Below are positions 3,421 through 62,715 of a stretch of DNA of 64,000 nucleotides, in pieces (within the stretch, counting starts at the first letter, position 1; each line of letters starts with the position of its first letter). The translations under genes and the position numbers were made by a program. The stretch comes from Candidatus Nanoarchaeia archaeon. GTDB lineage: Archaea > Nanobdellota > Nanobdellia > Woesearchaeales > GW2011-AR9. The stretch spans positions 4,662-68,661 of the forward strand of contig DATDWB010000028.1 of assembly GCA_035289845.1 (NCBI GenBank), given 5' to 3'. Below the pieces are notes generated by a model. The model was not told the origin of the DNA and made no database searches. It saw nothing but the letters and a program-made list of their open reading frames with translations.

Positions 3421-5376
3421 TCAATAAAAAATTCTATTTAGGAACATTTTTATTCGATCTAAAATGGTTTTGGCCTGGCCTTGCACTACAATTTCCTCAT
3501 TATAATAAAAACTGTGGTTAAATTTATCTTTCCAAGCGGCAGTTATCTTAAATTTGTTCTCTTTTTTTAACGGAAAATTTTCCAAGTTCAGAATGATTGA
3601 ATGTTCATTTTTTAAATCTTCCAATTGCCATTCATTTCTAAAACTGCCTTCTTCAAGTAAAAGGGCGATATCTTCGGGTATGGAAAAAGAGTTTTTGTTT
3701 AAAGTGATATTAAAGCTGAAAGGCTGACCGTAAGCAACTTGTGCCGGCAGGCCGGCGGCAATTTTTAAGTCAGGATCATCTATTACTACATATTCTAAAG
3801 AGGTTTTCTTTTCTATATCTCCATTTTCAGCCCTTACAATTATTTTTTTCCATCCGGTGGTGCTAGTATCTATGGTTAGAGAGTGTTCAACTTGTTGATT
3901 AATTGGCAAATCAATAGTTTTACAGTCAGAATTTAAGCAAAATTTAAGATCCAATAAATTAGTATTACCAATATTTTTTAAATTGCAGTTAACAGCAGCT
4001 GAAGTGTTTAATTTTATTTCCTGGTTGTATTCACAATTAAATAATGTTTTTCGAGAATAGCTTTTATCTTCATCAGTTATCATTAGTTTGGATATGTCTT
4101 TTTCAGTGTAAAACACAGTGTCTTCCCTAGATATGAAAGAGCTGTCAACAGAAACATTTTTTTCAGAGTAAATCAAGAGTGGAAAACTGTAATAATAGCC
4201 TGATTTCAGGTTTTCAGATATTTTTATTATCCAATAGGTTTCTTTTACTTCCTTGGGTGCCAATAGGACGTTTCGCCGGCCTCTACCTACAACTTCCAAG
4301 CTTTCTGGCACAGCCAAATTTAAAGTAGTGGATAAATAATAGTCCGCCGTATTTTTGAGTATCCCTTTAACTAAGTTATAACTCCCCAAATCTACTTCAT
4401 TAGACAATATTTCGGAGCTAAGCTGGATTTTTTCGGGTACAGGCGTACCTTTTTTTTCTATATGGAGGTAAAATTGCAGGGGTTTGGTTTCGACTTGGAC
4501 ATTATTTGATTTCCAGCTAAATTCTACCGCTCCTTCAGTAGGATCGACACTTTCGGATAGCTTAACATGAGTAACGTCTATATAGCCGTATTCACCAAAA
4601 GTAATATCAAAACTAACCCAGCCAATAGTTGGAAAATAAACTTCCGCCCAACCGTGGGGCTGCCAGTTTTCAATGAAAAGTTCTGAAGTAGTATAACTAA
4701 TTCCGGATACAAATCTAGCAGGTATACCTAATGAACGGGCCATAGCAATGAATAAGGAGGTCATTTCATCACACACTCCCTGTTTATTTTGCAGAACCCA
4801 GCTGGCGGTTTGAGAAGCTTTAGCAGTTAAAGTATTTAGTTCGTATTTAATATTACCCTCTACCCAATCAGCTAATTTAAACACCACCTTAAATAAATCA
4901 TCTTCTCCATCGGCTAACTCAGAGGCGATAGCTATAATTTTGGGATCATCTGAATTTATAATAGTCGTGGGAGATAAATAATCCTCCCCATCCTGGATTT
5001 CTGGTGAAATTAGGGGGAAAGGAATTTTAGTCTTAACTTTGATGATTTCATTATTAGTCTCGATTAAGGCTTGATAGCTAAAAGTCTTAATTTCAAATTT
5101 ATGATCTTCCCAATTAAATATTACAGTATTATTTTTTACTTCACCAGCGGTATTTTCTTGGAGGATTGTCTGGCGGAAGTCTTCCCGCGGGTAAAGTTTA
5201 AGTTGAGCGGATACTTGCTCTAATTGGGGATTTTCTCCAGAAGGTTTTAGTTGAAATTCCCCAGAGATGGTAAGGTCAATGATTAATTTATCTTGTATGT
5301 AAAGATTTTCTTCCTGAGCGGAAACGGATATTAATAATACTAAAAATAAGACTAGGCTCAGAAAGTTCTTATTCAT
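3421..5376 (-). CDS. Secreted transglutaminase-like protein (Cys-His-Asp papain-like core)
   Basis: N-terminal signal peptide MNKNFLSLVLFLVLLISVSAQ. Transglutaminase core motif QGVCDEMTSLF...HGWAEVYF...SFD. Confidence 0.7.
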   Translation of the reverse strand: MNKNFLSLVLFLVLLISVSAQEENLYIQDKLIIDLTISGEFQLKPSGENPQLEQVSAQLKLYPREDFRQTILQENTAGEVKNNTVIFNWEDHKFEIKTFSYQALIETNNEIIKVKTKIPFPLISPEIQDGEDYLSPTTIINSDDPKIIAIASELADGEDDLFKVVFKLADWVEGNIKYELNTLTAKASQTASWVLQNKQGVCDEMTSLFIAMARSLGIPARFVSGISYTTSELFIENWQPHGWAEVYFPTIGWVSFDITFGEYGYIDVTHVKLSESVDPTEGAVEFSWKSNNVQVETKPLQFYLHIEKKGTPVPEKIQLSSEILSNEVDLGSYNLVKGILKNTADYYLSTTLNLAVPESLEVVGRGRRNVLLAPKEVKETYWIIKISENLKSGYYYSFPLLIYSEKNVSVDSSFISREDTVFYTEKDISKLMITDEDKSYSRKTLFNCEYNQEIKLNTSAAVNCNLKNIGNTNLLDLKFCLNSDCKTIDLPINQQVEHSLTIDTSTTGWKKIIVRAENGDIEKKTSLEYVVIDDPDLKIAAGLPAQVAYGQPFSFNITLNKNSFSIPEDIALLLEEGSFRNEWQLEDLKNEHSIILNLENFPLKKENKFKITAAWKDKFNHSFYYNEEIVVQGQAKTILDRIKMFLNRIFY

Positions 5377-24764: not shown

Positions 24765-25145
24765 ATGAAACTACGCACCTGGATGGGGGAATGGCTGGTT
24801 GTTTTTACGATTCTGGCTACGGTTACGATCGCGACCGGAAATAAACCGCTAGAGTGGGTGGGGGTCTTTGCAGTTCTGTTTACCTTTGGCCATGCCGCAA
24901 TTAGTAATAGGATGGCTGAACGGCAGGCTAGGATGGTTACGCCGGATGTTCAGTGTTATAAATGGAGCGACCGTTATTTTATCTTCAAAGAAGGATTGTG
25001 GTTCATCTACTTTCTTTTCTCTCAGAGTTACGCTGCGCTAGTGGGGGTGATTATATTTTTGATCTATCCTTTCTGGCGGAAGTTGTATAGAAAGTGGAAA
25101 CCGTGGGAGATGGAAGGGGTATTGCACCCCTGCAGCAGGAAGTAA
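24765..25145 (+). CDS. Small membrane protein of atypical (about 47%) GC, hypothetical
   Basis: Three predicted TM segments. GC markedly above flanking genes. Confidence 0.4.
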   Translation: MKLRTWMGEWLVVFTILATVTIATGNKPLEWVGVFAVLFTFGHAAISNRMAERQARMVTPDVQCYKWSDRYFIFKEGLWFIYFLFSQSYAALVGVIIFLIYPFWRKLYRKWKPWEMEGVLHPCSRK

Positions 25146-26706: not shown

Positions 26707-27228
26707 ATGGTTAAAGAAGCGGTGGCAGTACACAAATGTGTGGATCGTTCTATTTATTTGCAGGCTAATAATGGAGATATTTTATTGTTTTATAGTACTA
26801 GACCAATGCTGGTAGATAATGATTGTACGACCACTTCATTTGCGGGAGAATATTTTGTTCCGGCCGATATGGCTACAGAACTTTATAACTCTATCAACGC
26901 AGGTCATGATCCTTCCAGAATCGTTAAAGAACTAGGGTTGGAAAGACGGACTGTTTCTTCAGTTTTAGAAGATATTGCTAGAAGAGATGGTGGAACATCT
27001 CCTGCTCCAAATGTTACAAGAGATGGTGGAACACCTCCTGCTCCAAACATTCCTGATACATACCATCGTGGTGCAGCTGGACTTCACGCAATTGTAGACG
27101 ACTTTGGTATTGGTACGCCAGTGCCGCTTAGATATTTTGATAATGGCCGCGATCGCAGATTGTCTGTTAAGCGGATAAGATTGAAACCTGGTCCAGGCGG
27201 TCTCGTGCCTTATGTGGATGATGATTAA
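26707..27228 (+). CDS. Hypothetical protein with a tandem RDGGT(S/P)PAPN repeat; first gene of the GC-atypical island
   Basis: About 45% GC. Internal direct repeat DGGTSPAPNVTRDGGTPPAPNI. No homolog recognised. Confidence 0.4.
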   Translation: MVKEAVAVHKCVDRSIYLQANNGDILLFYSTRPMLVDNDCTTTSFAGEYFVPADMATELYNSINAGHDPSRIVKELGLERRTVSSVLEDIARRDGGTSPAPNVTRDGGTPPAPNIPDTYHRGAAGLHAIVDDFGIGTPVPLRYFDNGRDRRLSVKRIRLKPGPGGLVPYVDDD

Positions 27229-27436
27229 TTAAATAATTCTAATATTTTTCCAATTTATCTCTTCCGACATTCATCTGCAACTACTTTCAAAAATTCTTTT
27301 AAGTATTCCATCTTACTTTTTGCTTTTTCCGCGTCTTCCATAATTGCGGGGATAAGAAGGTTAATCAACTCTGTTCGAGCTTCTGTTGGTTACAGTTCAA
27401 TAAACTTTAAATAGTGTTTTTCTATAAAAGTAGTAA

Positions 27437-28468
27437 ATGGTGGATCGATCGAAACCAGACTTGTATGCAATTCTAGAAGTAAATCCACGAGCCCGAACGG
27501 AAGTTATTGATGCAGCTTATAAAGCATTGATGAAACAATATCATCCTGACATTAATCAGGACGATTCTAAAGGCAGTTCGGATATTGCTAGACAATTAAA
27601 TGAAGCTAGGACTACTTTGCTTAATCCTAATTTAAGATCTAAATATGATTCGTCCAGAAATATACTTAATAAAGGGGGTAATCCCATTATCAATGGCTAC
27701 CGTTTTTTAGAAAAGATTGCGGAAGGGGGTTTTGGGCCAACTTTTAAAGCTGAACATGTAGAGTCTGGACTGCCAGTTTGTGTTAAGGTTGGACATCAAA
27801 TTTCCCCGCAGCATGAACAAGTATTAAGGGATGAAGCACGGGCCATTTGGGATTTACGTCATTATGGTATTCCAGTCATGCGGGACATGTTCAAAACTGA
27901 TGATCAAGGCTTATTTTTGGTCATGAGCTATATACCGGGACCAACTTTAGAAAAAGTTGTTCAGAAAGCAGGCAACGGCTTAGATCCTGAACATGTGGCG
28001 TGGATTACGGAACGAACACTAAATGTCTTGATGTATCTGCATTACCACGGGGTTGTTCATGGGGATGTGAAACCGCAGAACATTATCATCCAACCTGAAA
28101 AACATGAGCTAGTACTAGTGGATTATGGGCTTTCAGCAATACGTCCAGAAGCTAAAGCTGGAAGTAAGGGCCATACTGAATTATTTTCTTCTCCGGAACA
28201 ATTAAAAGGTTTGACTATACTTCCTCAATCAGATTTTTATAGCTTAGCCATGACGATGATCTATGCTTTGGGCGGGGATATGAACACAAAAAGAGTTCCA
28301 GAATCAACTCCCAATCCAATGTGTAATTTTATTGCCCGCTGCTTGGTGCGCGATGTTCTGTCGCGTCCAGATTGGAATTCAGAAAATTTGTTTGAAAGTT
28401 TCAAGAAAGTAAGAACGGAATCTTTTGGCAGAAGTCGTTCAGCAATGAAGCCCCTACCCGGGGCATAA
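27437..28468 (+). CDS. J-domain (DnaJ N-terminal, HPD motif) fused to a Ser/Thr protein kinase domain
   Basis: DLYAILEV...YKALMKQYHPDIN is a J domain. The kinase carries the glycine loop region EGGFGPTF, the VCVK lysine, catalytic loop HGDVKPQNI, DFG-equivalent VDYGLS, and SPE. Confidence 0.7.
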   Translation: MVDRSKPDLYAILEVNPRARTEVIDAAYKALMKQYHPDINQDDSKGSSDIARQLNEARTTLLNPNLRSKYDSSRNILNKGGNPIINGYRFLEKIAEGGFGPTFKAEHVESGLPVCVKVGHQISPQHEQVLRDEARAIWDLRHYGIPVMRDMFKTDDQGLFLVMSYIPGPTLEKVVQKAGNGLDPEHVAWITERTLNVLMYLHYHGVVHGDVKPQNIIIQPEKHELVLVDYGLSAIRPEAKAGSKGHTELFSSPEQLKGLTILPQSDFYSLAMTMIYALGGDMNTKRVPESTPNPMCNFIARCLVRDVLSRPDWNSENLFESFKKVRTESFGRSRSAMKPLPGA

Positions 28469-28476
28469 ATGGAGGA

Positions 28477-29457
28477 TTGATAAATATGTCTGAAGCAGGA
28501 GATTATGAACCAGGTGATTGGAAAGGCCACGATTTTGCATCCGCACGCCAGGATTATGACCGGTATGCGAAAAGGAGTTATGCTGATGCACAAAATTCTA
28601 AGAAAGATGCAACAAAATTGGTACCTCAGTCAATGAACACAAATAGTTCCGCCCCTTTAGTTATTGCCTGTGACGTTACAGGCTCGATGGGGGAATGGCC
28701 AGCAACAATATTTTCTAAATTACCTTATCTGGATTTGGAAGGAAAACAATATCTTGGTCCAGATATGGAAATAAGTTTTGCGGCTATAGGAGACGCTTAT
28801 AGTGACCAATATCCATTACAGGTTAGACCGTTTACTTCCGGAACTGATTTAGCAACCCATCTTAAAGAATTGGTTATTGAAGGGAATGGCGGCGGGCAAG
28901 CAAGAGAAAGTTATGACCTACCTGCGTTATACTTTTCCCGTCAGGTGGAAATGCCCGGAGCAATAAACAAGCCGATCTTTATTTACATTGGAGATGAAGG
29001 AATATATGATTTTGTGGATAAAGATCAAGCTAAAAAATGGGCTAACACCACCTTAGAAGGACGGCTCTCATCTAGACAAGTTATGGAAGAATTGAAAGAT
29101 AAATTTTCAGTATATATTGTACGGAAAAATTTTGGCAGCGGTTCAGGTGATTCCAGAAACGATGCAGATCAGGCCATACAGCGTCAGTGGGAAACGTACT
29201 TAGGTGCAGATCACGTAGCAATCTTACCTAAGGCAGATCGGGTAGTGGATGTAATCTTTGGTATTTTAGCTCAGGAAACTGGCCGGATAGATTATTTTCG
29301 TGACGAAATTAAAGGAAGGCAGAGACCGGATCAAGTGACAGAAGCACTTAAGTCGTTAAAGTCAATCCATACTGGTTTACCTGGAGCACCACTTCTTCCC
29401 TCAGGTAAATCAGTAATGCGGCTTCCGGGTGGAAACAAAACCAAACCTATCTTATAA
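28477..29457 (+). CDS. von Willebrand factor A (vWA) domain protein with an intact MIDAS motif
   Basis: DVTGSMG (DxSGS), downstream TSGTD and GDEG. 8-nt gap from the kinase gene, so operonic. Confidence 0.7.
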   Translation: MINMSEAGDYEPGDWKGHDFASARQDYDRYAKRSYADAQNSKKDATKLVPQSMNTNSSAPLVIACDVTGSMGEWPATIFSKLPYLDLEGKQYLGPDMEISFAAIGDAYSDQYPLQVRPFTSGTDLATHLKELVIEGNGGGQARESYDLPALYFSRQVEMPGAINKPIFIYIGDEGIYDFVDKDQAKKWANTTLEGRLSSRQVMEELKDKFSVYIVRKNFGSGSGDSRNDADQAIQRQWETYLGADHVAILPKADRVVDVIFGILAQETGRIDYFRDEIKGRQRPDQVTEALKSLKSIHTGLPGAPLLPSGKSVMRLPGGNKTKPIL

Positions 29458-29512
29458 TTTTTTTATTTTTTAAATTTGTTTTTAATTTTCAAAGTATTAA
29501 CAAAAGTATTAA

Positions 29513-29555
29513 AGAGAAGTTTGCATAATTAAATTATTTATCCGCAAACTTCTCT
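29513..29555. repeat. Palindromic repeat element, copy F (identical to 6954-6996)
   Basis: 43/43 identity with copy A. Sits at the right edge of the GC-atypical kinase/vWA island. Confidence 0.9.
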
Positions 29556-29639
29556 AAACAAAGGTGATAACTAAATATCGCTCCTCCTCACAACAACTTT
29601 AAAAAATTAAATCCTAAAAATAATTAAGGTGTATGTTTC

Positions 29640-30647
29640 ATGAAAGATTTAGAATTGTTAGTAACTTTATGGCCTACATTTCCCCACTTTAAAAGGTTCG
29701 CTCAGGACAATAGGCTGGCGGGTATAAGGTTAAACAGTGCCATGATTGAATTGGAAGAGTTAGGCGACGAATTACAACTGGCTCAGAAAATTGGCGGTCA
29801 AGTGCCTTTATATTTTGATGTTAAGGCCAGGCAGCTGCGGGTAGCAGAAGTAATACCTAATTCAAATTATCTTGAACTGATTTTGAATCACCCCATCAGC
29901 GTGAAAACTCCAACTGAAGTTTTATTTAAAGCGGGAGAAGATTGTGCTGTTTTGGATAAAGTTAAGGAAGGGAAACATTTAATCTTTCAGGGCGGACCGC
30001 ATTACAAAGTTAAAAAAGGCGAGTCACTTCATATAAGGCACCCTAGTTTAGAAGTTGGAGGTTCAACCTTTGCAGATTCGGAAATTCCTAAAATCGAAAA
30101 AGCCAAAGCAGCTGGATTTGATAAATTTTTTATGTCCTATGTTGAATCCCAGCGGGACATCGATGCCTTCCGTGAACTAGTGGGTGATGCCTACATCATT
30201 GCTAAAATTGAAAATAATAAGGGATTAAATTATGTTGCTAAAGAATATGTCAAAAAAGATAATCTGGCACTGATTGCGGCCTGCGGAGATTTATATGTGG
30301 AGATAGGCAGACCCCATGAAATAATGGGGGCGCTGAAGTTGATAATTGAGAAAGACCCGCAAGCATATGTTGGGTCAAGAATGTTATTGTCAGTGATACA
30401 CAGTCCAGTTCCGTCCTTTGCAGATTTATTGCAATTGTCGTGGCTGTATGATACTGGTTATAAAAGGATGATGCTATGTGATGAGTTATGCTTAAAAGAA
30501 GATTTGCTAGGAACAGCAGTAAATGTTTTTGAAAGTTTCCGGGAGACTTATGCTCATGAAATACAAGAACAGATGGCTGTCGAACAATATGTTCCAATGG
30601 TAGGCAAAATAGGGATGATACAACTAGCAGAAAAGTTAATTTATTAA
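29640..30647 (+). CDS. Pyruvate kinase-like protein comprising the A (TIM barrel) and B domains only, lacking the C-terminal domain
   Basis: VTLWPTF / AGIRLNSA / IIAKIENNKG / ACGDLYVEIG parallel the PK motifs CTIGPAS / ARLNFSHG / KIEN / ARGDLGIEI. 335 aa versus roughly 470 for a canonical PK. Confidence 0.45.
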   Translation: MKDLELLVTLWPTFPHFKRFAQDNRLAGIRLNSAMIELEELGDELQLAQKIGGQVPLYFDVKARQLRVAEVIPNSNYLELILNHPISVKTPTEVLFKAGEDCAVLDKVKEGKHLIFQGGPHYKVKKGESLHIRHPSLEVGGSTFADSEIPKIEKAKAAGFDKFFMSYVESQRDIDAFRELVGDAYIIAKIENNKGLNYVAKEYVKKDNLALIAACGDLYVEIGRPHEIMGALKLIIEKDPQAYVGSRMLLSVIHSPVPSFADLLQLSWLYDTGYKRMMLCDELCLKEDLLGTAVNVFESFRETYAHEIQEQMAVEQYVPMVGKIGMIQLAEKLIY

Positions 30648-49591: not shown

Positions 49592-51466
49592 ATGAATTCT
49601 GATGACAGGAATTATGAGACCAATTATTTTCCCTATACAACCATTCGCTCCGGCCAAAAAGAATTGATTGAAGATATTGAAACTGCTTTCTCCAGCCAAA
49701 AAATTTTACTAGCCAATGCCCCTACCGGTTTAGGGAAAACAGCCAGTGCTTTGGCGGTGGCTCTAAAGTACGCTCTGGAGAAAGATAAAATTGTTTTTTT
49801 TCTAACCAATCGACATACACAGCACCAGCTGGCAGTAAATACCTTAAAATTAATTCAAGAAAAATTTAAGCTGGATTTTGCAGTAGTCGATCTAATTGGC
49901 AAAAAATGGATGTGTAACCAGGATGTGGCCAAGCTGTTTGGCAATGATTTTAACGAGTACTGCAAATCGGTAGTAGAAAAAGGGGAATGTGAATTTTATA
50001 ACCGGTTTAAAGAGAAAAATAATTTGACAGTGGAAGCTAAATTATTAGTAAAGGAATTGCAGTCCCAAATACTGCACAATGAACAGCTGATTGCCTTAGG
50101 CAAAGAAAAAAAGATGTGCAGTTATGAAATCTCTTTAAGCCTGGCCAAGAAAGCAAAAGTGATTATTGGTGATTATTATTATCTGTTTAATCCGTATGTT
50201 CAATCAACCTTGTTCAAAAAATTAGATCTGGAGATCGAGGATATAATCATAATTGTGGATGAAGGTCATAATTTACCTTCCCGGGTTAGTGAGATGCTTA
50301 GCTCAAATTTAACTTCCCTCATGATTAAAAATGGAGTAATAGAAGCTAAAAAGTTTGGTTATCCCGGAATGATAGTTTGGCTGCAGGAATTGATGAAGGT
50401 TTTAGATTCATTGGCCGTATTTAACACTGCCGATAAAGAAAAATTGGTCACTAAGGATTTATTTAGGTATAAAATAGAGTCAGTTGTGAATTACGATCGG
50501 TTGTTAGATGAATTAGAGCAGGCAGCAGAGGAAATCCGTAAAAAACAACCGCGGAGTTATTTGGGAGGAATTTTGAGTTTCCTTAGTTCATGGCTAGGTG
50601 AAGAGGAAGGATTTGTGAGAATAATCTCCCAAAAGCCCAGCAAATATGGTCCGGTAACTAGTTTAAGCTATTCGTGTTTAGATCCAGGAATAGTAACTGC
50701 TGATATTTTTAAGCAAGTTCATGCCGGGGTGATAATGAGCGGAACTCTAACCCCAACGTTTATGTACCGAGATTTATTAGGTATTAAAAATTCCATTGAA
50801 AAAGATTACAAGTCTCCATTCCTGCCGGAAAATAAATTATCTTTGGTAGTAACTAAAACAACTACCCGGTTTACTTCCCGAAATGATATGATGTATCAGC
50901 AAATGGCTGCTGTATGCAGCCAGATTGAGGAATTAGTCCCGGGTAATGTAGCTTTGTTTTTTCCATCATATAAACTTCGCGATGATGTGGGATTATTTTT
51001 TAGTTCTAAAAAAAAGTTATTCTGGGAGAAAGCGGAGATGAGCAAAGAAGAAAAGGAAGATCTGTTAAATAAATTTAAGGAAGCCAGAAAGGAAGGCGGA
51101 GTTTTGCTGGCGGTAACTGGGGCTAATTTTGCGGAAGGGATTGATTTACCCGGAGATTTGCTTCAGGGAGTTATAGTAGTGGGCTTACCATTGGCGCGGC
51201 CAGGAATTAAGACTAAAGAAATTATTAATTATTATGAAAAAAAATTTGGTCGAGGATGGGATTATGGGTATATTTATCCAGCCATGAACAAATGTCTTCA
51301 ATCTTCCGGCCGATGCATTCGCACCGAAAATGATCGCGGGGTGGTGGTGTATTTAGATGAGCGTTTTGCCTGGGAGAAATATTACAATTGTCTGCCTAAG
51401 GAAGGGCTGATTGTAACTCAAAAATTTGAGGAACATTTGCGTAAATTTTTTAATGAGGAAGGTTAG
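49592..51466 (+). CDS. xpd: XPD/Rad3-family 5'-3' DNA helicase with a FeS domain
   Basis: Walker A APTGLGKT. DEGH box. Four FeS Cys (C...C...C...C near residues 100-140). Helicase motifs V-VI. Confidence 0.88.
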   Translation: MNSDDRNYETNYFPYTTIRSGQKELIEDIETAFSSQKILLANAPTGLGKTASALAVALKYALEKDKIVFFLTNRHTQHQLAVNTLKLIQEKFKLDFAVVDLIGKKWMCNQDVAKLFGNDFNEYCKSVVEKGECEFYNRFKEKNNLTVEAKLLVKELQSQILHNEQLIALGKEKKMCSYEISLSLAKKAKVIIGDYYYLFNPYVQSTLFKKLDLEIEDIIIIVDEGHNLPSRVSEMLSSNLTSLMIKNGVIEAKKFGYPGMIVWLQELMKVLDSLAVFNTADKEKLVTKDLFRYKIESVVNYDRLLDELEQAAEEIRKKQPRSYLGGILSFLSSWLGEEEGFVRIISQKPSKYGPVTSLSYSCLDPGIVTADIFKQVHAGVIMSGTLTPTFMYRDLLGIKNSIEKDYKSPFLPENKLSLVVTKTTTRFTSRNDMMYQQMAAVCSQIEELVPGNVALFFPSYKLRDDVGLFFSSKKKLFWEKAEMSKEEKEDLLNKFKEARKEGGVLLAVTGANFAEGIDLPGDLLQGVIVVGLPLARPGIKTKEIINYYEKKFGRGWDYGYIYPAMNKCLQSSGRCIRTENDRGVVVYLDERFAWEKYYNCLPKEGLIVTQKFEEHLRKFFNEEG

Positions 51467-59487: not shown

Positions 59488-60144
59488 TTAGAATGCGTTC
59501 TTAAGTTCTAGTTTGATGATAATTGAAAATGATTCCATTCCTTGGTTGGGGTCAATATCTGCAATATAGACCACTATTTTTTGATTGATCGGGATGGAAA
59601 AACTTTGTCCCTTCTGCCTGCTAATGCTCATAGCAGGCATAAGTATTCCAATATCATTAATTCCAATATTGGTAAGGGTTGCAAATTCTAGGCTGCTAGC
59701 ACTAATTTCAACATGCTTCCTGGAAAAATGTGCAGAAAGACCTGGGATATTATCCCGGCCTAAGATTAAAGGTTCTTTTTTCTTAAGTTCAAATGATTGG
59801 GTATTTTCACCAGGAGATTTTACAATTACCGTGAAAACTTGTTTCATAATCACCGCCTTATCCTCACTCTTTTCCAATTCTTGGGATACGGCAGTTATCT
59901 TTTTTAACTCTGCCCGCATCAGGTTCAAATCTTTAAGAATTCCCTGCGCCCGCAAATGGACGTTTTTGGCAAGGATAGGTTTCTTGCTCTTTTTTAGCAT
60001 TTCCACAGCATTCTTGAATTCATTCATTTTAGGAAGAAGATCATTAAATATAACTGTTAATTCGCTTAATCTTTTGACAATAATATCTATTTCTTTGTCG
60101 GCTAGTTTTTGCCAGGCTTCCGGACTCTTATTAAAAAAACTCAT
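59488..60144 (-). CDS. FHA-domain protein
   Basis: C-terminal LILGRDNIPGLSAHFSRKHVEI ... NIGIND matches the FHA G-R/S-R-x-H/N pattern. Confidence 0.6.
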   Translation of the reverse strand: MSFFNKSPEAWQKLADKEIDIIVKRLSELTVIFNDLLPKMNEFKNAVEMLKKSKKPILAKNVHLRAQGILKDLNLMRAELKKITAVSQELEKSEDKAVIMKQVFTVIVKSPGENTQSFELKKKEPLILGRDNIPGLSAHFSRKHVEISASSLEFATLTNIGINDIGILMPAMSISRQKGQSFSIPINQKIVVYIADIDPNQGMESFSIIIKLELKNAF

Positions 60145-60199: not shown

Positions 60200-60691
60200 T
60201 CATCCTTTAATCTGAAACTCAAAGGCATTAGTATCGCTGATAAAAATTTGGTAAACTTTGGGAGAAAATGGATCTACTTCTAATTCCTGGTCCTTACGCA
60301 GTGATCCACGGACAGAATTGGCAACAACTACTTGTATGGGGATGCTCCCGGTATTCTTAATGAAGCCTTTACGATTGCGCAAGTGAACCACCACTTGCCG
60401 TCCATAAACTGTATCCGGCAGGTTAGGCCAGGTATCGCGTCCTAAACTTACTGGTTCATTAGAAGACAGGCTGAATTTTCGGCTTATACCCCCTTTAGCA
60501 GAAGCTTCCACTGAAAATCGAATTCCAGACGAGGAATAAGACCTATCCATGTTTTCTTGCACAGCTGAACTTTTAGAATTATTCGGATTATTTAGAACTA
60601 TTCGTTTTTGCCCTAATCCTGGTTCGAGGTGGCTAGAGGGGTTGTATTTATCACTATCCCACCCCTTAGGGGTGTTCTTAACTAAAACCAT
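60200..60691 (-). CDS. FHA-like domain protein
   Basis: VSLGRDTWPNLPDTVYGRQVVVH...IKNTGS is an FHA-like core. Tandem with the previous gene. Confidence 0.45.
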   Translation of the reverse strand: MVLVKNTPKGWDSDKYNPSSHLEPGLGQKRIVLNNPNNSKSSAVQENMDRSYSSSGIRFSVEASAKGGISRKFSLSSNEPVSLGRDTWPNLPDTVYGRQVVVHLRNRKGFIKNTGSIPIQVVVANSVRGSLRKDQELEVDPFSPKVYQIFISDTNAFEFQIKG

Positions 60692-60870: not shown

Positions 60871-62715
60871 ATGGCTATAATTAAGCTGCTAAGTGAAGAA
60901 ATAATCAATAAAATTGCTGCCGGGGAAGTAATTGAAAGGCCAGCTTCAGTAGTAAAGGAATTAATTGAAAATTCGTTAGATGCGGGTGCTGGCAGTATTA
61001 GGGTGGAAATTAAAAATTCAGGCCAAGATTTGATAAAAGTAACCGATGACGGGCAGGGAATGGATGAAGAAGATGCCCGGAATTCAATTCTTCCCCATGC
61101 CACCAGCAAATTAGCTTCAGTAGAAGATTTGTATTCCCTTCAAACCCTGGGTTTTAGGGGAGAAGCCTTAGCCAGCATTGCGGCAGTTTCTCAGCTGGCT
61201 ATAATTACCAAACCTAAGGGTAAATTGGAAGGATTTAATTTGGTAGCAGAAGGCGGTTCTATGGTCAGTTGCGGCATAATTGCCGCAGATCAAGGTACAA
61301 CCGTGGAGGTAAGAAATTTATTTTATAACACTCCCGCCAGGAAAAAATTTCTAAAAACTGAAGCAGTAGAATTGAGGCATATTATTGAAGTGCTAACTCA
61401 CTATGCCTTGTTTAATAACCATATAGCATTTAAATTGATTCATGATAATCACCAATTAATAAATTCTCCAGCTTTGATTGACATGCGGGATAACATCGCT
61501 TCAATTTATGGCATAGGTTTGGCTAAAGATTTATTGGAGGTTAATTATAAAGATGAAGGAGTAATAGTCAGCGGCTATGTGGCTAAACCCAGCCGAGCCA
61601 GGAATGACAAATCTCAGCAAGCTTTATTTGTCAATGGAAGGTGGGTTAAAAATAATGATATTAATAAAGCGGTCTATGAGGCTTTTCATTCTTTATTAAT
61701 GGTAGGAAAACATCCCATTTTTGTGCTTTCAATTACCATTAATCCCCAAAAGATTGATGTTAATGTACACCCCCAAAAATTAGAAATTAAATTTGAACAA
61801 ACTGAGAAAGTTTTTTCAGCGGCATTTAATTCGGTTCGAGAATCTCTGCAGCGGAATAATTTAATCCCCATTGTAGATGAAATCTACCCTCAGTTTAATA
61901 TAGGTTTGGGCAAGAATATTTTTAAATATAATTTTGAAAGAAGCACCCAAACTATTTTTCCTTCAGAAAACAATCTATCACCAACAGAAGATTCTTTAAC
62001 TTGGGCCGGAGTGAATCCGCTGCTGTTGGGTGAAGAGATAAATAGCCATAATAATGACTCTGATGTTTTTAAGGATGCAGCTGCAGTCATACAATCTAAC
62101 AACCATCATCTGTCTAGTAAAGAGTTCTCTCCCATTTTTTTCCCTAGTATGAAAATATTGGGGCAAATCCATAAAACTTTCTTTGCAGCGGAAACGGAAG
62201 GCGGAGTGTTCTTTCTAGATCAACACGCAGTCCACGAACGTATTTTATATGAAAAATTTATGAATCAATTTATGAATTCTGAAGTCAAGATCCAAAGTTT
62301 GCTTCAAGGGGAAATAATAAATTTTACTCCGGCAGAGAAAATTTTGGTGTTGGAACATAAAACTGAATTGAGCCGGTTGGGATTTAATTTGGAGGAATTC
62401 GGTGATTCTACTTTTGTCATTAAAACTGTACCTTTAATCTTTGGCCGGTTGCAGCATTCGCAGACTATCCAGGAAGTAGTGAGCACCTTGCTGGAAAAAC
62501 AAAATAGCATTGAAATGTTAAAAGAGGAAATAATCACCCGAATGGCCTGCCGGGCGGCAGTCATGGCGGGGGAGGAATTAACAGTATCGAGATTTGAAAC
62601 TTTGGTGCAGGAATTGTCCTTAACCAGACTGCCCTATACCTGTCCTCACGGACGCCCCTCATTGTTTAAAATTACCAGCGAAGAGCTGGAAAAAAAGTTT
62701 AAGAGGAGAGGGTGA
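60871..62715 (+). CDS. mutL: DNA mismatch repair protein MutL
   Basis: GHKL ATPase N-terminus (ELIENSLDAGA, GFRGEAL). C-terminal dimerisation/endonuclease domain. 614 aa. Confidence 0.9.
   Translation: MAIIKLLSEEIINKIAAGEVIERPASVVKELIENSLDAGAGSIRVEIKNSGQDLIKVTDDGQGMDEEDARNSILPHATSKLASVEDLYSLQTLGFRGEALASIAAVSQLAIITKPKGKLEGFNLVAEGGSMVSCGIIAADQGTTVEVRNLFYNTPARKKFLKTEAVELRHIIEVLTHYALFNNHIAFKLIHDNHQLINSPALIDMRDNIASIYGIGLAKDLLEVNYKDEGVIVSGYVAKPSRARNDKSQQALFVNGRWVKNNDINKAVYEAFHSLLMVGKHPIFVLSITINPQKIDVNVHPQKLEIKFEQTEKVFSAAFNSVRESLQRNNLIPIVDEIYPQFNIGLGKNIFKYNFERSTQTIFPSENNLSPTEDSLTWAGVNPLLLGEEINSHNNDSDVFKDAAAVIQSNNHHLSSKEFSPIFFPSMKILGQIHKTFFAAETEGGVFFLDQHAVHERILYEKFMNQFMNSEVKIQSLLQGEIINFTPAEKILVLEHKTELSRLGFNLEEFGDSTFVIKTVPLIFGRLQHSQTIQEVVSTLLEKQNSIEMLKEEIITRMACRAAVMAGEELTVSRFETLVQELSLTRLPYTCPHGRPSLFKITSEELEKKFKRRG

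Follow-up and report, generated by a model that had tools for sequence, protein, structure and literature searches.

A J-domain kinase, a vWA-fold protein and a pyruvate-kinase-like enzyme are encoded as a linked trio in DPANN archaea, CPR bacteria and large phages

What does a protein kinase that carries a J domain do in an archaeon, and which genes belong with it? The question is raised by a locus in a 64,000-nucleotide stretch of contig DATDWB010000028.1 (hereafter the window), from the metagenome-assembled genome (MAG) of a 'Candidatus Nanoarchaeia archaeon' (source proteins HLD00703-HLD00706). Here, the gene for a J domain fused to a Hanks-type Ser/Thr kinase is followed by one for a protein of the vWA fold. 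An initial annotation had treated these two genes, together with an open reading frame (ORF) upstream of them, as an island of atypical GC content. We argue instead that the J-kinase and the vWA protein belong with a third gene, for a minimal pyruvate kinase (PK), to a native, self-contained operon that DPANN archaea and bacteria of the Candidate Phyla Radiation (CPR) pass on as one piece, that is found in large phages too and that has a control-module role, a reading to which we assign a probability of about one half. Its anatomical part, a linked operon of J-kinase, vWA protein with a metal-ion-dependent adhesion site (MIDAS)-type motif and mini-PK, we regard as very secure. The specific mechanism of regulation in trans that we infer for it is put forward tentatively.

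The unit is defined by conserved linkage. Each of the three proteins has more than 1000 relatives, with 55-70% identity and mostly from MAGs of Woesearchaeota, Pacearchaeota and Nanoarchaeia, and contigs of matching length appear in all three sets. More than 1000 homologs of the kinase share its J-kinase architecture, and at 50% identity the vWA family falls into 1513 clusters. A scan with a vWA profile yielded 49 loci in species-representative genomes and 19 in IMG/VR, and the J-kinase gene adjoins the vWA gene in about 65 of 68 loci; gene-neighbourhood comparison thus bore out the conserved kinase-vWA pairing that the initial annotation had proposed to look for. The PK-like gene comes next. 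In nearly every locus that is long enough, about 60 non-redundant ones, the genes for J-kinase, vWA protein and PK-like enzyme are adjacent and in this order, with median spacers of 36 nucleotides (nt) between kinase and vWA genes and 23 nt between vWA and PK-like genes, and with overlaps in many loci. When the neighbours at 75 loci were clustered, the J-kinase, vWA and PK-like families were the only recurrent ones, other apparent 'families' being antisense shadow ORFs. No fourth linked gene, whether for a phosphatase, an FHA protein, Hsp70 or GrpE, was found among the neighbours at these 75 loci, and the genes beyond the trio vary from genome to genome. Finally, pairwise distances are correlated among the three proteins (r 0.51-0.69), which is what co-inheritance of the trio would produce.

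The arrangement has a few variants. The Nanoarchaeota single amplified genome AM-311-M09 (locus L012, 6007-9104) has a tandem duplication of the vWA gene (P0032 and P0108; ACFL1H_03545/03550), because of which the PK-like gene is displaced 1.1 kb downstream; similar gaps of about 1 kb occur in L035 and L052. At three loci of a Saccharibacteria/Parcubacteria subclade (L036, L040 and L054), the J-kinase gene is still next to the other two but is read divergently, from the strand opposite to that of the vWA and PK-like genes.

The first gene of the trio encodes a J domain placed N-terminally to a Hanks kinase core, as had been proposed. Both parts matched their Pfam models well above the gathering cut-offs: DnaJ (PF00226) with E 5.6e-14 (52.4 bits against 27.8) and Pkinase (PF00069) with E 5.5e-30 (105.1 bits against 31.7). 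The motifs are in place as well, with HPD at residues 36-38, VCVK (K117), HGDVKPQN (208-215), DYG (229-231) and SPE (252-254). The N-terminal part thus combines the J-domain sequence model with H36-P37-D38, and the C-terminal part combines the Pkinase model with a full set of catalytic residues; the HGD of its catalytic loop makes the kinase a non-RD one. The initial annotation had named two ways in which its reading could fail, namely loss of essential catalytic residues on alignment and a mis-joined ORF with the J domain encoded separately in orthologs. Neither was found. G97, G100, K117, E133, H208-G209-D210, N215, D229, G231 and E254 are invariant in 55 of 55 kinases, as is C115, and the ORF is not mis-joined because all 55 relatives examined carry the same fusion.

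The two halves of the fusion differ in how strictly they are kept. HPD is present in 44 of the 55 family members and replaced in the other 11 (by PPS, RPE, SKD or GPD, for example), including Woesearchaeal members such as the one at L001; L008, L012 and L021 are among the other loci without it. Because the catalytic residues are invariant and HPD is variable, kinase activity would be the constant feature of the family, and stimulation of Hsp70 common and dispensable. Judged by its residues, the window kinase is apparently active. The proposal that the J domain implies recruitment of Hsp70 therefore fits the window protein, in which HPD is intact, but it does not extend to the whole family, about 20% of which is without the motif. 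Nor is a J domain odd in a small archaeal genome, as had been thought: many DPANN archaea carry a complete DnaK-DnaJ-GrpE system, according to one study (PMC8204110).

The second gene encodes a protein with the Rossmann-like alpha/beta fold of vWA domains, which follows a conserved N-terminal extension of about 55 residues. No vWA family in Pfam, NCBIfam or PADLOC matched it at E <= 1, and its sole match was phrog_2971 (function unknown). The vWA/MIDAS identity claimed for it holds for the fold, and a candidate metal-site motif is conserved, but curated vWA models do not recognise the protein. In an alignment of 36 vWA sequences, D66, T68, S70, D106, D110 and D173-E174 are invariant (MIDAS residues are numbered from TTG 28477); the candidate MIDAS, formed by D66-x-T68-x-S70 and D173, departs from D-x-S-x-S in having Thr in place of Ser at the second position. 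We place the start of the gene at ATG 28486 rather than at TTG 28477, because a GGAGGA lies upstream of the ATG, all homologs start with MSE(S/A)GDY and the NCBI protein has 323 residues. Of the coupling to the kinase gene that had been proposed, the close linkage stands, but the gap is 17 nt from the corrected ATG and not 8 nt.

The C-terminal tail of the vWA protein is predicted to be disordered (pLDDT < 50 from residue 301) and is enriched in Lys/Arg (22% vs 14%) and in Ser/Thr (18% vs 13%). It ends in [KR]-x-[LIVM]-[LIVM] in 36 of 63 vWA sequences (~57%), as in SKSLL, TKSLL and, in the window, TKPIL (29395-29457). As a candidate short linear motif, this ending could dock to the kinase, to Hsp70 or to a protease.

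The third gene was absent from the initial annotation. Its product matches the PK barrel of Pfam with E 3e-9 (36.9 bits against a cut-off of 30), and its structure model (AF2; pLDDT 90.9) has the TIM barrel of the PK A domain with an inserted B domain. All of the top 50 Foldseek matches to the model are pyruvate kinases (E about 5e-18, TM 0.62-0.70, 15-20% identity). In the HMMER alignment, K189-I-E191-N corresponds to the PK Lys/Glu, G216-D217-L to the Mg-binding Asp and S246-R-x-L to the proton-donor Thr, so that the site is that of a PK with Ser (S246) replacing the catalytic Thr. The motifs K-I-E-N, G-D, S-R-x-L and D-E are invariant in the family, as are R30, N32, D60, K62, D281 and E282; the equivalence of R30/N32/D60/K62 to the R-x-N and D-x-K sites of PK was judged by eye from motif order. 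Taken together, these features describe what is apparently a minimal, catalytically equipped PK core. It shares the A+B fold and the catalytic Lys/Glu/Asp/Thr(Ser) positions with canonical enzymes (PykF/PykA, PKM) at the low identity given above. However, canonical PKs have an allosteric and tetramerisation C domain and about 470 residues, whereas the mini-PK gave no PK_C match and stops at residue 335, after one long helix (287-334). Against the NCBIfam equivalog for pyruvate kinase it scores 38.5 bits, well below the cut-off of 306.4. Unlike canonical PK, it is encoded beside the J-kinase and vWA genes in nearly all loci.

In the window the spacer between the vWA and PK-like genes is longer than usual (182 nt, where the median over 60 loci is 23 nt) and contains the palindromic repeat at which the initial annotation had ended its island. 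The inverted repeat exists, with perfect arms, but its place is between the second and third genes of the trio, and since that next gene belongs to the unit the repeat does not mark an end. The spacer may hold a terminator, attenuator or separate promoter peculiar to the source genome. A scan for promoters and terminators, based on a bacterial sigma-70 consensus, was uninformative, with counts at or below shuffled expectation.

The trio is spread across two large groups of prokaryotes. DPANN carriers are Woesearchaeota, Pacearchaeota and Nanoarchaeia, with the complete AR15 genome among the carriers. Those in CPR/Patescibacteria belong to at least ten groups, including Saccharibacteria, Parcubacteria, Falkowbacteria, Nealsonbacteria and Collierbacteria, and also Daviesbacteria, Lloydbacteria, Buchananbacteria, Sungiibacteriota and Peribacteria. 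Three Spirochaetales MAGs and single MAGs labelled Bdellovibrionota, Omnitrophota, Obscuribacterales and others carry it as well. In a neighbour-joining tree built from the concatenated trio, a DPANN clade that includes the window copy stands apart from a CPR clade, and a huge phage lies outside both. The bacterial affinity that had been expected of the kinase was not borne out by this tree.

Some carriers sit in the tree at places that their labels would not suggest. The Spirochaetales copies (L014/L003, L020 and L030, all from one study) nest in the DPANN clade with 61-63% identity, and their vWA proteins (P0084 and P0113) have Lys/Thr-rich repetitive C-terminal extensions that bring them to lengths of up to 555 residues. 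One Spirochaetales contig also has genes for TerB-domain proteins and for an outer-membrane efflux protein, which speaks for a real transfer into a diderm bacterium and against mis-binning. By comparison, L023 and L035 (labelled Methanosarcinales; GC 30-31%) and L028 and L031 (labelled Gammaproteobacteria) fall inside the DPANN and CPR clades; because of this placement and of a GC content that is low for the label, they are probably mis-binned, and we did not count these MAGs as independent lineages.

Phages carry the module in complete and in altered form. All three genes are present, in order, in the 485-kb huge phage LR745208.1 (L005), whose kinase is 40% identical to that of the window over its full length and whose PK-like protein is 44% identical. 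At the IMG/VR locus L069 the gene for a major head protein lies directly upstream of the kinase gene, and L060 and L061 contain genes typical of large phages. A few kilobases downstream of the trio, the huge phage also encodes a Thg1-like tRNA-His guanylyltransferase (L005, 9398-10291), and a similar ORF is seen in several IMG/VR loci (for example, L063, 8408-9256). In the 201 records of Cluster C mycobacteriophages, a vWA homolog (gp258 in LinStu) comes directly after a gene for a kinase homolog (gp257). LinStu gp257 aligns to the window kinase from helix II of the J domain onwards and keeps HPD; J or J-like domains are found in the phage proteins of L005, L069 and LinStu alike. Because its catalytic loop reads HGA and DFG is replaced by DWC, gp257 is likely a pseudokinase. 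The vWA gene of LinStu is followed by one for an adenylosuccinate-synthetase-like protein (gp260), and in Vibrio phages of about 190 kb a vWA homolog is likewise followed by a PurA-like gene; the assignment comes from Pfam (Adenylsucc_synt, E 2.5e-55). These cases suggest a recurring association of vWA proteins with a purine enzyme in phages, in which the vWA homologs (from mycobacteriophages and Vibrio phages) are distant, with 26-36% identity over part of the protein.

Table 1. Positions of the genes, domains and sequence elements discussed in the text; positions refer to the window unless a phage locus is named.
Feature	Position	Strand	Description
ORF1	26707-27228		Orphan, outside the conserved module
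J-domain/Hanks-type Ser/Thr kinase fusion (HLD00704.1)	27437..28468	+	343 aa; Pfam DnaJ and Pkinase above gathering cut-offs
J domain, aa 8-71	27458..27649	+	PF00226, 63/63 profile positions; HPD at aa 36-38
Protein kinase domain, aa 88-283	27698..28285	+	PF00069 match; non-RD (HGD)
Shine-Dalgarno GGAGGA	28471..28476	+	Read from sequence, 9 nt upstream of ATG 28486
vWA-fold protein (HLD00705.1)	28486..29457	+	323 aa from ATG; conserved N-terminal helix, vWA domain, C-terminal helical bundle, disordered basic tail
MIDAS-type motif D66-V-T68-G-S70	28672..28686	+	Invariant in 36 sequences
vWA-to-PK-like spacer	29458..29639	+	AT-rich, 22% GC; T-run after the vWA stop
Inverted repeat in the spacer	29513-29524 / 29544-29555		Perfect 12-nt arms, 19-nt loop
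Pyruvate-kinase-like enzyme (HLD00706.1)	29640..30647	+	335 aa; A (TIM barrel) and B domains, no C domain, long C-terminal helix
First putative FHA ORF	59488-60144	-	Weak Prefoldin_2-like coiled-coil match, E 0.0017
Second putative FHA ORF	60200-60691	-	No Pfam FHA match at E <= 10
Mycobacterium phage LinStu (NC_023714.1) cassette gp257/gp258/gp260	L006 2667-6383
Vibrio phage pv27 vWA and PurA-like genes	L007 4986-7068

How much of the island then remains? The three ORFs that had been listed are present at their coordinates, and the J-kinase and vWA assignments were right. The GC contrast was not: instead of 40-45% against 33%, we found 40.6% for the region against 37.4% for the window (z = 1.33), and GC is as high or higher in 9% of equal-sized windows. 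The flanking genes for IMP dehydrogenase (IMPDH; the upstream neighbour) and replication factor C (RFC) have a GC content of 40.5%, and the flanks consist of ordinary archaeal core genes, for an aminoacyl-tRNA synthetase, IMPDH, RFC and a class II aminoacyl-tRNA synthetase. With ordinary GC, housekeeping surroundings and nearest relatives in other Woesearchaeota and Nanoarchaeia (55-66% identity), horizontal acquisition as an island is not borne out. Among the genes measured near the trio, the highest GC (47%) belongs to a small ORF at 24765-25145.

Gene membership changes too. J-kinase and vWA genes stay in the unit, the PK-like gene has to be added and ORF1 has to be taken out: its product is a singleton protein cluster, found at 0 of the 75 related loci and recurring solely in the contig of a near-identical strain (L076). 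The repeat reported in ORF1 is real: at 26976-27047 a 36-nt unit is duplicated in tandem, encoding RDGGT(S/P)PAPN(V/I), and the protein otherwise gave a weak helix-turn-helix hint (HTH_29, E 0.042). Two ORFs some 30 kb away had been offered as FHA-domain readers of phosphothreonine. They gave no FHA match by hidden Markov model (HMM) even at E <= 10 and are not linked to the module, and no FHA gene recurs near the 75 loci; we therefore set them aside as readers. Both share an LGRD-type motif, and by eye a loose LGR...SRKH pattern can be made out. Elsewhere in the window are genes for a transglutaminase-core protein (651 aa, 3421-5376), an XPD/DinG-like helicase (624 aa, 49592-51466) and a bacterial-type MutL (614 aa, 60871-62715).

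What could three such proteins do together? In the reading we prefer, they would constitute a trans-acting control module for the step that converts phosphoenolpyruvate (PEP) to pyruvate and forms ATP. The vWA protein would serve as the adaptor, its MIDAS face holding either the mini-PK or the basic, Ser/Thr-rich tail of the vWA protein itself, or the two together, with the tail as a candidate substrate. Phosphorylation of enzyme or adaptor by the kinase would switch activity or assembly, and the J domain would recruit the cell's DnaK/Hsp70 so that the complex is remodelled or turned over. In this way the module would substitute for the allosteric regulation that the missing PK C domain provides. 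Precedents exist for the separate steps. Pyruvate kinases of bacteria and mammals are regulated by Ser/Thr phosphorylation, as with M. tuberculosis PknJ acting on PykA and with liver PK. Human HSP40 is reported to destabilise PKM2 through HSC70 (PMC3962495), and MoxR ATPases have vWA proteins as co-chaperones that bind their clients (PMC7159879).

Several points weigh against this reading. HPD is gone from 11 of 55 kinases that have kept their kinase residues intact, so that recruitment of Hsp70 is not essential to the core function of the family. No Hsp70 gene was found within the 64-kb window, which is uninformative for the rest of the genome. With a 182-nt spacer, a T-run and a hairpin in front of it, the PK-like gene may be transcribed separately in the source genome. 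Should these genomes encode a canonical PK as well, the mini-PK may act on a different substrate or serve a different purpose. Finally, given the carriage by phages and the PurA-like gene that replaces the PK-like one in some of them, a role in nucleotide supply or host takeover fits at least as well.

The takeover role would make the trio a phage-derived conflict module, in which the J-kinase is an effector acting on many targets or on DnaK and the vWA protein a sensor or adaptor, and which helps phages, episymbionts and predators to manipulate a host or defends by abortive infection. We think this rather unlikely, even though the trio occurs in real phages (LR745208.1, L069, L060/L061) and Cluster C mycobacteriophages retain a J-like kinase homolog together with the vWA gene. 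It would also suit the cellular carriers, which are mostly host-dependent (DPANN, CPR and the MAGs labelled Bdellovibrionota and Omnitrophota), and the flanking genes, which differ in every genome. The kinase domain resembles the defence kinases PD-T4-6 and MAD6 in PADLOC, but these PADLOC and NCBIfam matches are to a generic kinase domain and fall far below the cut-offs. We accordingly rejected membership in PD-T4-6, MADS (MAD6) or BREX (PglW): the likeness is confined to the kinase domain, with 76 against 460 bits for MAD6 and 48 against 990 for PglW, and the partner genes are not nearby. Moreover, the trio is conserved strongly and evenly (55-66% identity within Woesearchaeota, 47-57% to CPR) and its tree for the most part mirrors the division into DPANN and CPR, which sets it apart from fast-evolving, patchy defence genes. 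The surroundings are housekeeping genes, other defence genes do not recur nearby, and a strictly conserved, apparently competent PK-like enzyme would be left unexplained. A conflict system, as suggested earlier from kinase and vWA protein together, is thus possible and less favoured. The nucleotide-supply role would turn the mini-PK into a PEP-driven (d)NDP kinase or a purine enzyme, with J-kinase and vWA protein as its regulator or assembly factor. Pyruvate kinase accepts other NDPs and can replace nucleoside diphosphate kinase. A PurA-like gene stands in the place of the PK-like one after the vWA gene in LinStu and pv27, IMPDH is the upstream neighbour here, and L001 has PurH-like, thymidylate kinase and ribonucleotide reductase genes within 8 kb. 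According to PMC8204110, DPANN and CPR organisms scavenge nucleotides. However, such neighbours are not conserved across loci and so may be coincidental, and the PurA-like link comes from two phage groups with distant vWA homologs; we consider this account improbable. No better odds go to a broader version, in which DPANN, CPR and huge phages would share laterally an 'energy or nucleotide tap', a PK core switched by a J-kinase and a vWA protein that engage Hsp70, possibly the host's, for PEP-driven (d)NTP production, with the PurA-like cassettes of mycobacteriophages and Vibrio phages as variants.

Two further accounts would deny the trio its unity, and we give both very little credence. One is that of the initial annotation, a GC-atypical island of bacterial origin made up of ORF1, J-kinase and vWA gene and read by FHA proteins 30 kb away. 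It had two of the assignments right, kinase-vWA pairings are known in bacteria, and the existence of both a CPR and a DPANN clade implies that the module moved between domains at some point. But GC is ordinary, ORF1 is absent from the 75 related loci and the window copy clusters with DPANN; the account also omits the PK-like gene, although this is the most constant partner, and relies on FHA domains, for which HMMs gave no match at E <= 10 and no linked gene was found. The other takes the adjacency as coincidence, the PK-like protein being the glycolytic pyruvate kinase of the cell and unrelated to J-kinase and vWA protein. The NCBI annotation is indeed pyruvate kinase, and the 182-nt spacer with its T-run would fit a separate gene here. 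Against this, gene order is kept in about 60 loci from two domains and phages while all other neighbours vary, the median spacer is 23 nt with many overlaps, and the three proteins diverge in a correlated manner.

Set beside known systems, the trio is a signalling cassette of the kinase-vWA type with an unusual composition and a striking spread over two ultra-small radiations and large phages. The TerY-P triad, which reportedly consists of the vWA protein TerY, a Ser/Thr kinase and a PP2C phosphatase, is likewise a compact, laterally spreading cassette that couples a Hanks-type kinase to a MIDAS-type vWA protein. In the trio, by contrast, the vWA protein is not seen by Pfam, the kinase has a J domain and the third gene is PK-like; we rejected membership because no PP2C partner was found among the neighbours of the 75 loci. 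The three-gene operon PrkA(YeaG)-YeaH-YcgB of prokaryotes is conserved too and encodes a Ser kinase next to a protein resembling vWA (DUF444), but that kinase is of the AAA+ type and without Hanks/J architecture, the third gene is SpoVR-like and homology to the trio was not detected. Likeness to the archaellum regulators of Sulfolobus, namely ArnB (vWA), ArnA (FHA/Zn-ribbon) and the kinases ArnC and ArnD, goes as far as the generic vWA fold. The trio has neither an FHA/ArnA partner nor ArnB_C, and differs in lineage, gene context and associated enzyme; no FHA domain was found in the linked genes, and the one ArnB_C match was non-significant (E 0.22) and on the kinase, so that ArnAB membership was rejected as well. 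Pairs of MoxR and vWA proteins (the Rubisco activase CbbQ-CbbO, NorQ-NorD) resemble the trio in the logic of a vWA adaptor joined to an ATPase, whereas the trio lacks an AAA+ MoxR gene, would reach an ATPase indirectly through the J domain and Hsp70 and has a kinase domain in addition.

The fusion itself has its nearest parallel in eukaryotic GAK/auxilin-2, which holds a Ser/Thr kinase and a J domain in one polypeptide and couples phosphorylation with Hsp70-driven disassembly. GAK differs in having the kinase N-terminal and the J domain C-terminal, with PTEN-like and clathrin-binding regions, and is specific to eukaryotes; common descent is not indicated. Among phages, RB43 encodes Rki, a small stand-alone J protein, and phage J domains engage the host's DnaK, whereas here the J domain shares one polypeptide with a kinase or pseudokinase, and a vWA gene always accompanies it. 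In the full-text literature we did not find the trio described, nor a fusion of J domain and Hanks kinase in DPANN, CPR or phages; the survey of J proteins from bacteria and phages by Barriot et al. (2020) may mention them. Public annotations of the three proteins read 'protein kinase' (or 'DnaJ' or 'CbpA'), 'hypothetical protein' and 'pyruvate kinase'.

These labels bear on how the carriers are understood. DPANN and CPR are vast, ultra-small and mostly host-dependent radiations that are known largely from annotation, and an operon common to both and to large phages is a rare handle on them. Metabolic reconstructions tally PYK without telling its forms apart, and the mini-PK is probably counted there as pyk. 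Because this 'pyruvate kinase' has no regulatory domain and is accompanied by a kinase and a proposed adaptor, inferences about energy metabolism may need revisiting. A fusion of J domain and kinase in prokaryotes and phages would be a new coupling of Hsp70 to phospho-signalling, and in gp257/gp258 of the Bxz1-like phages of M. smegmatis the module exists in a genetically tractable version.

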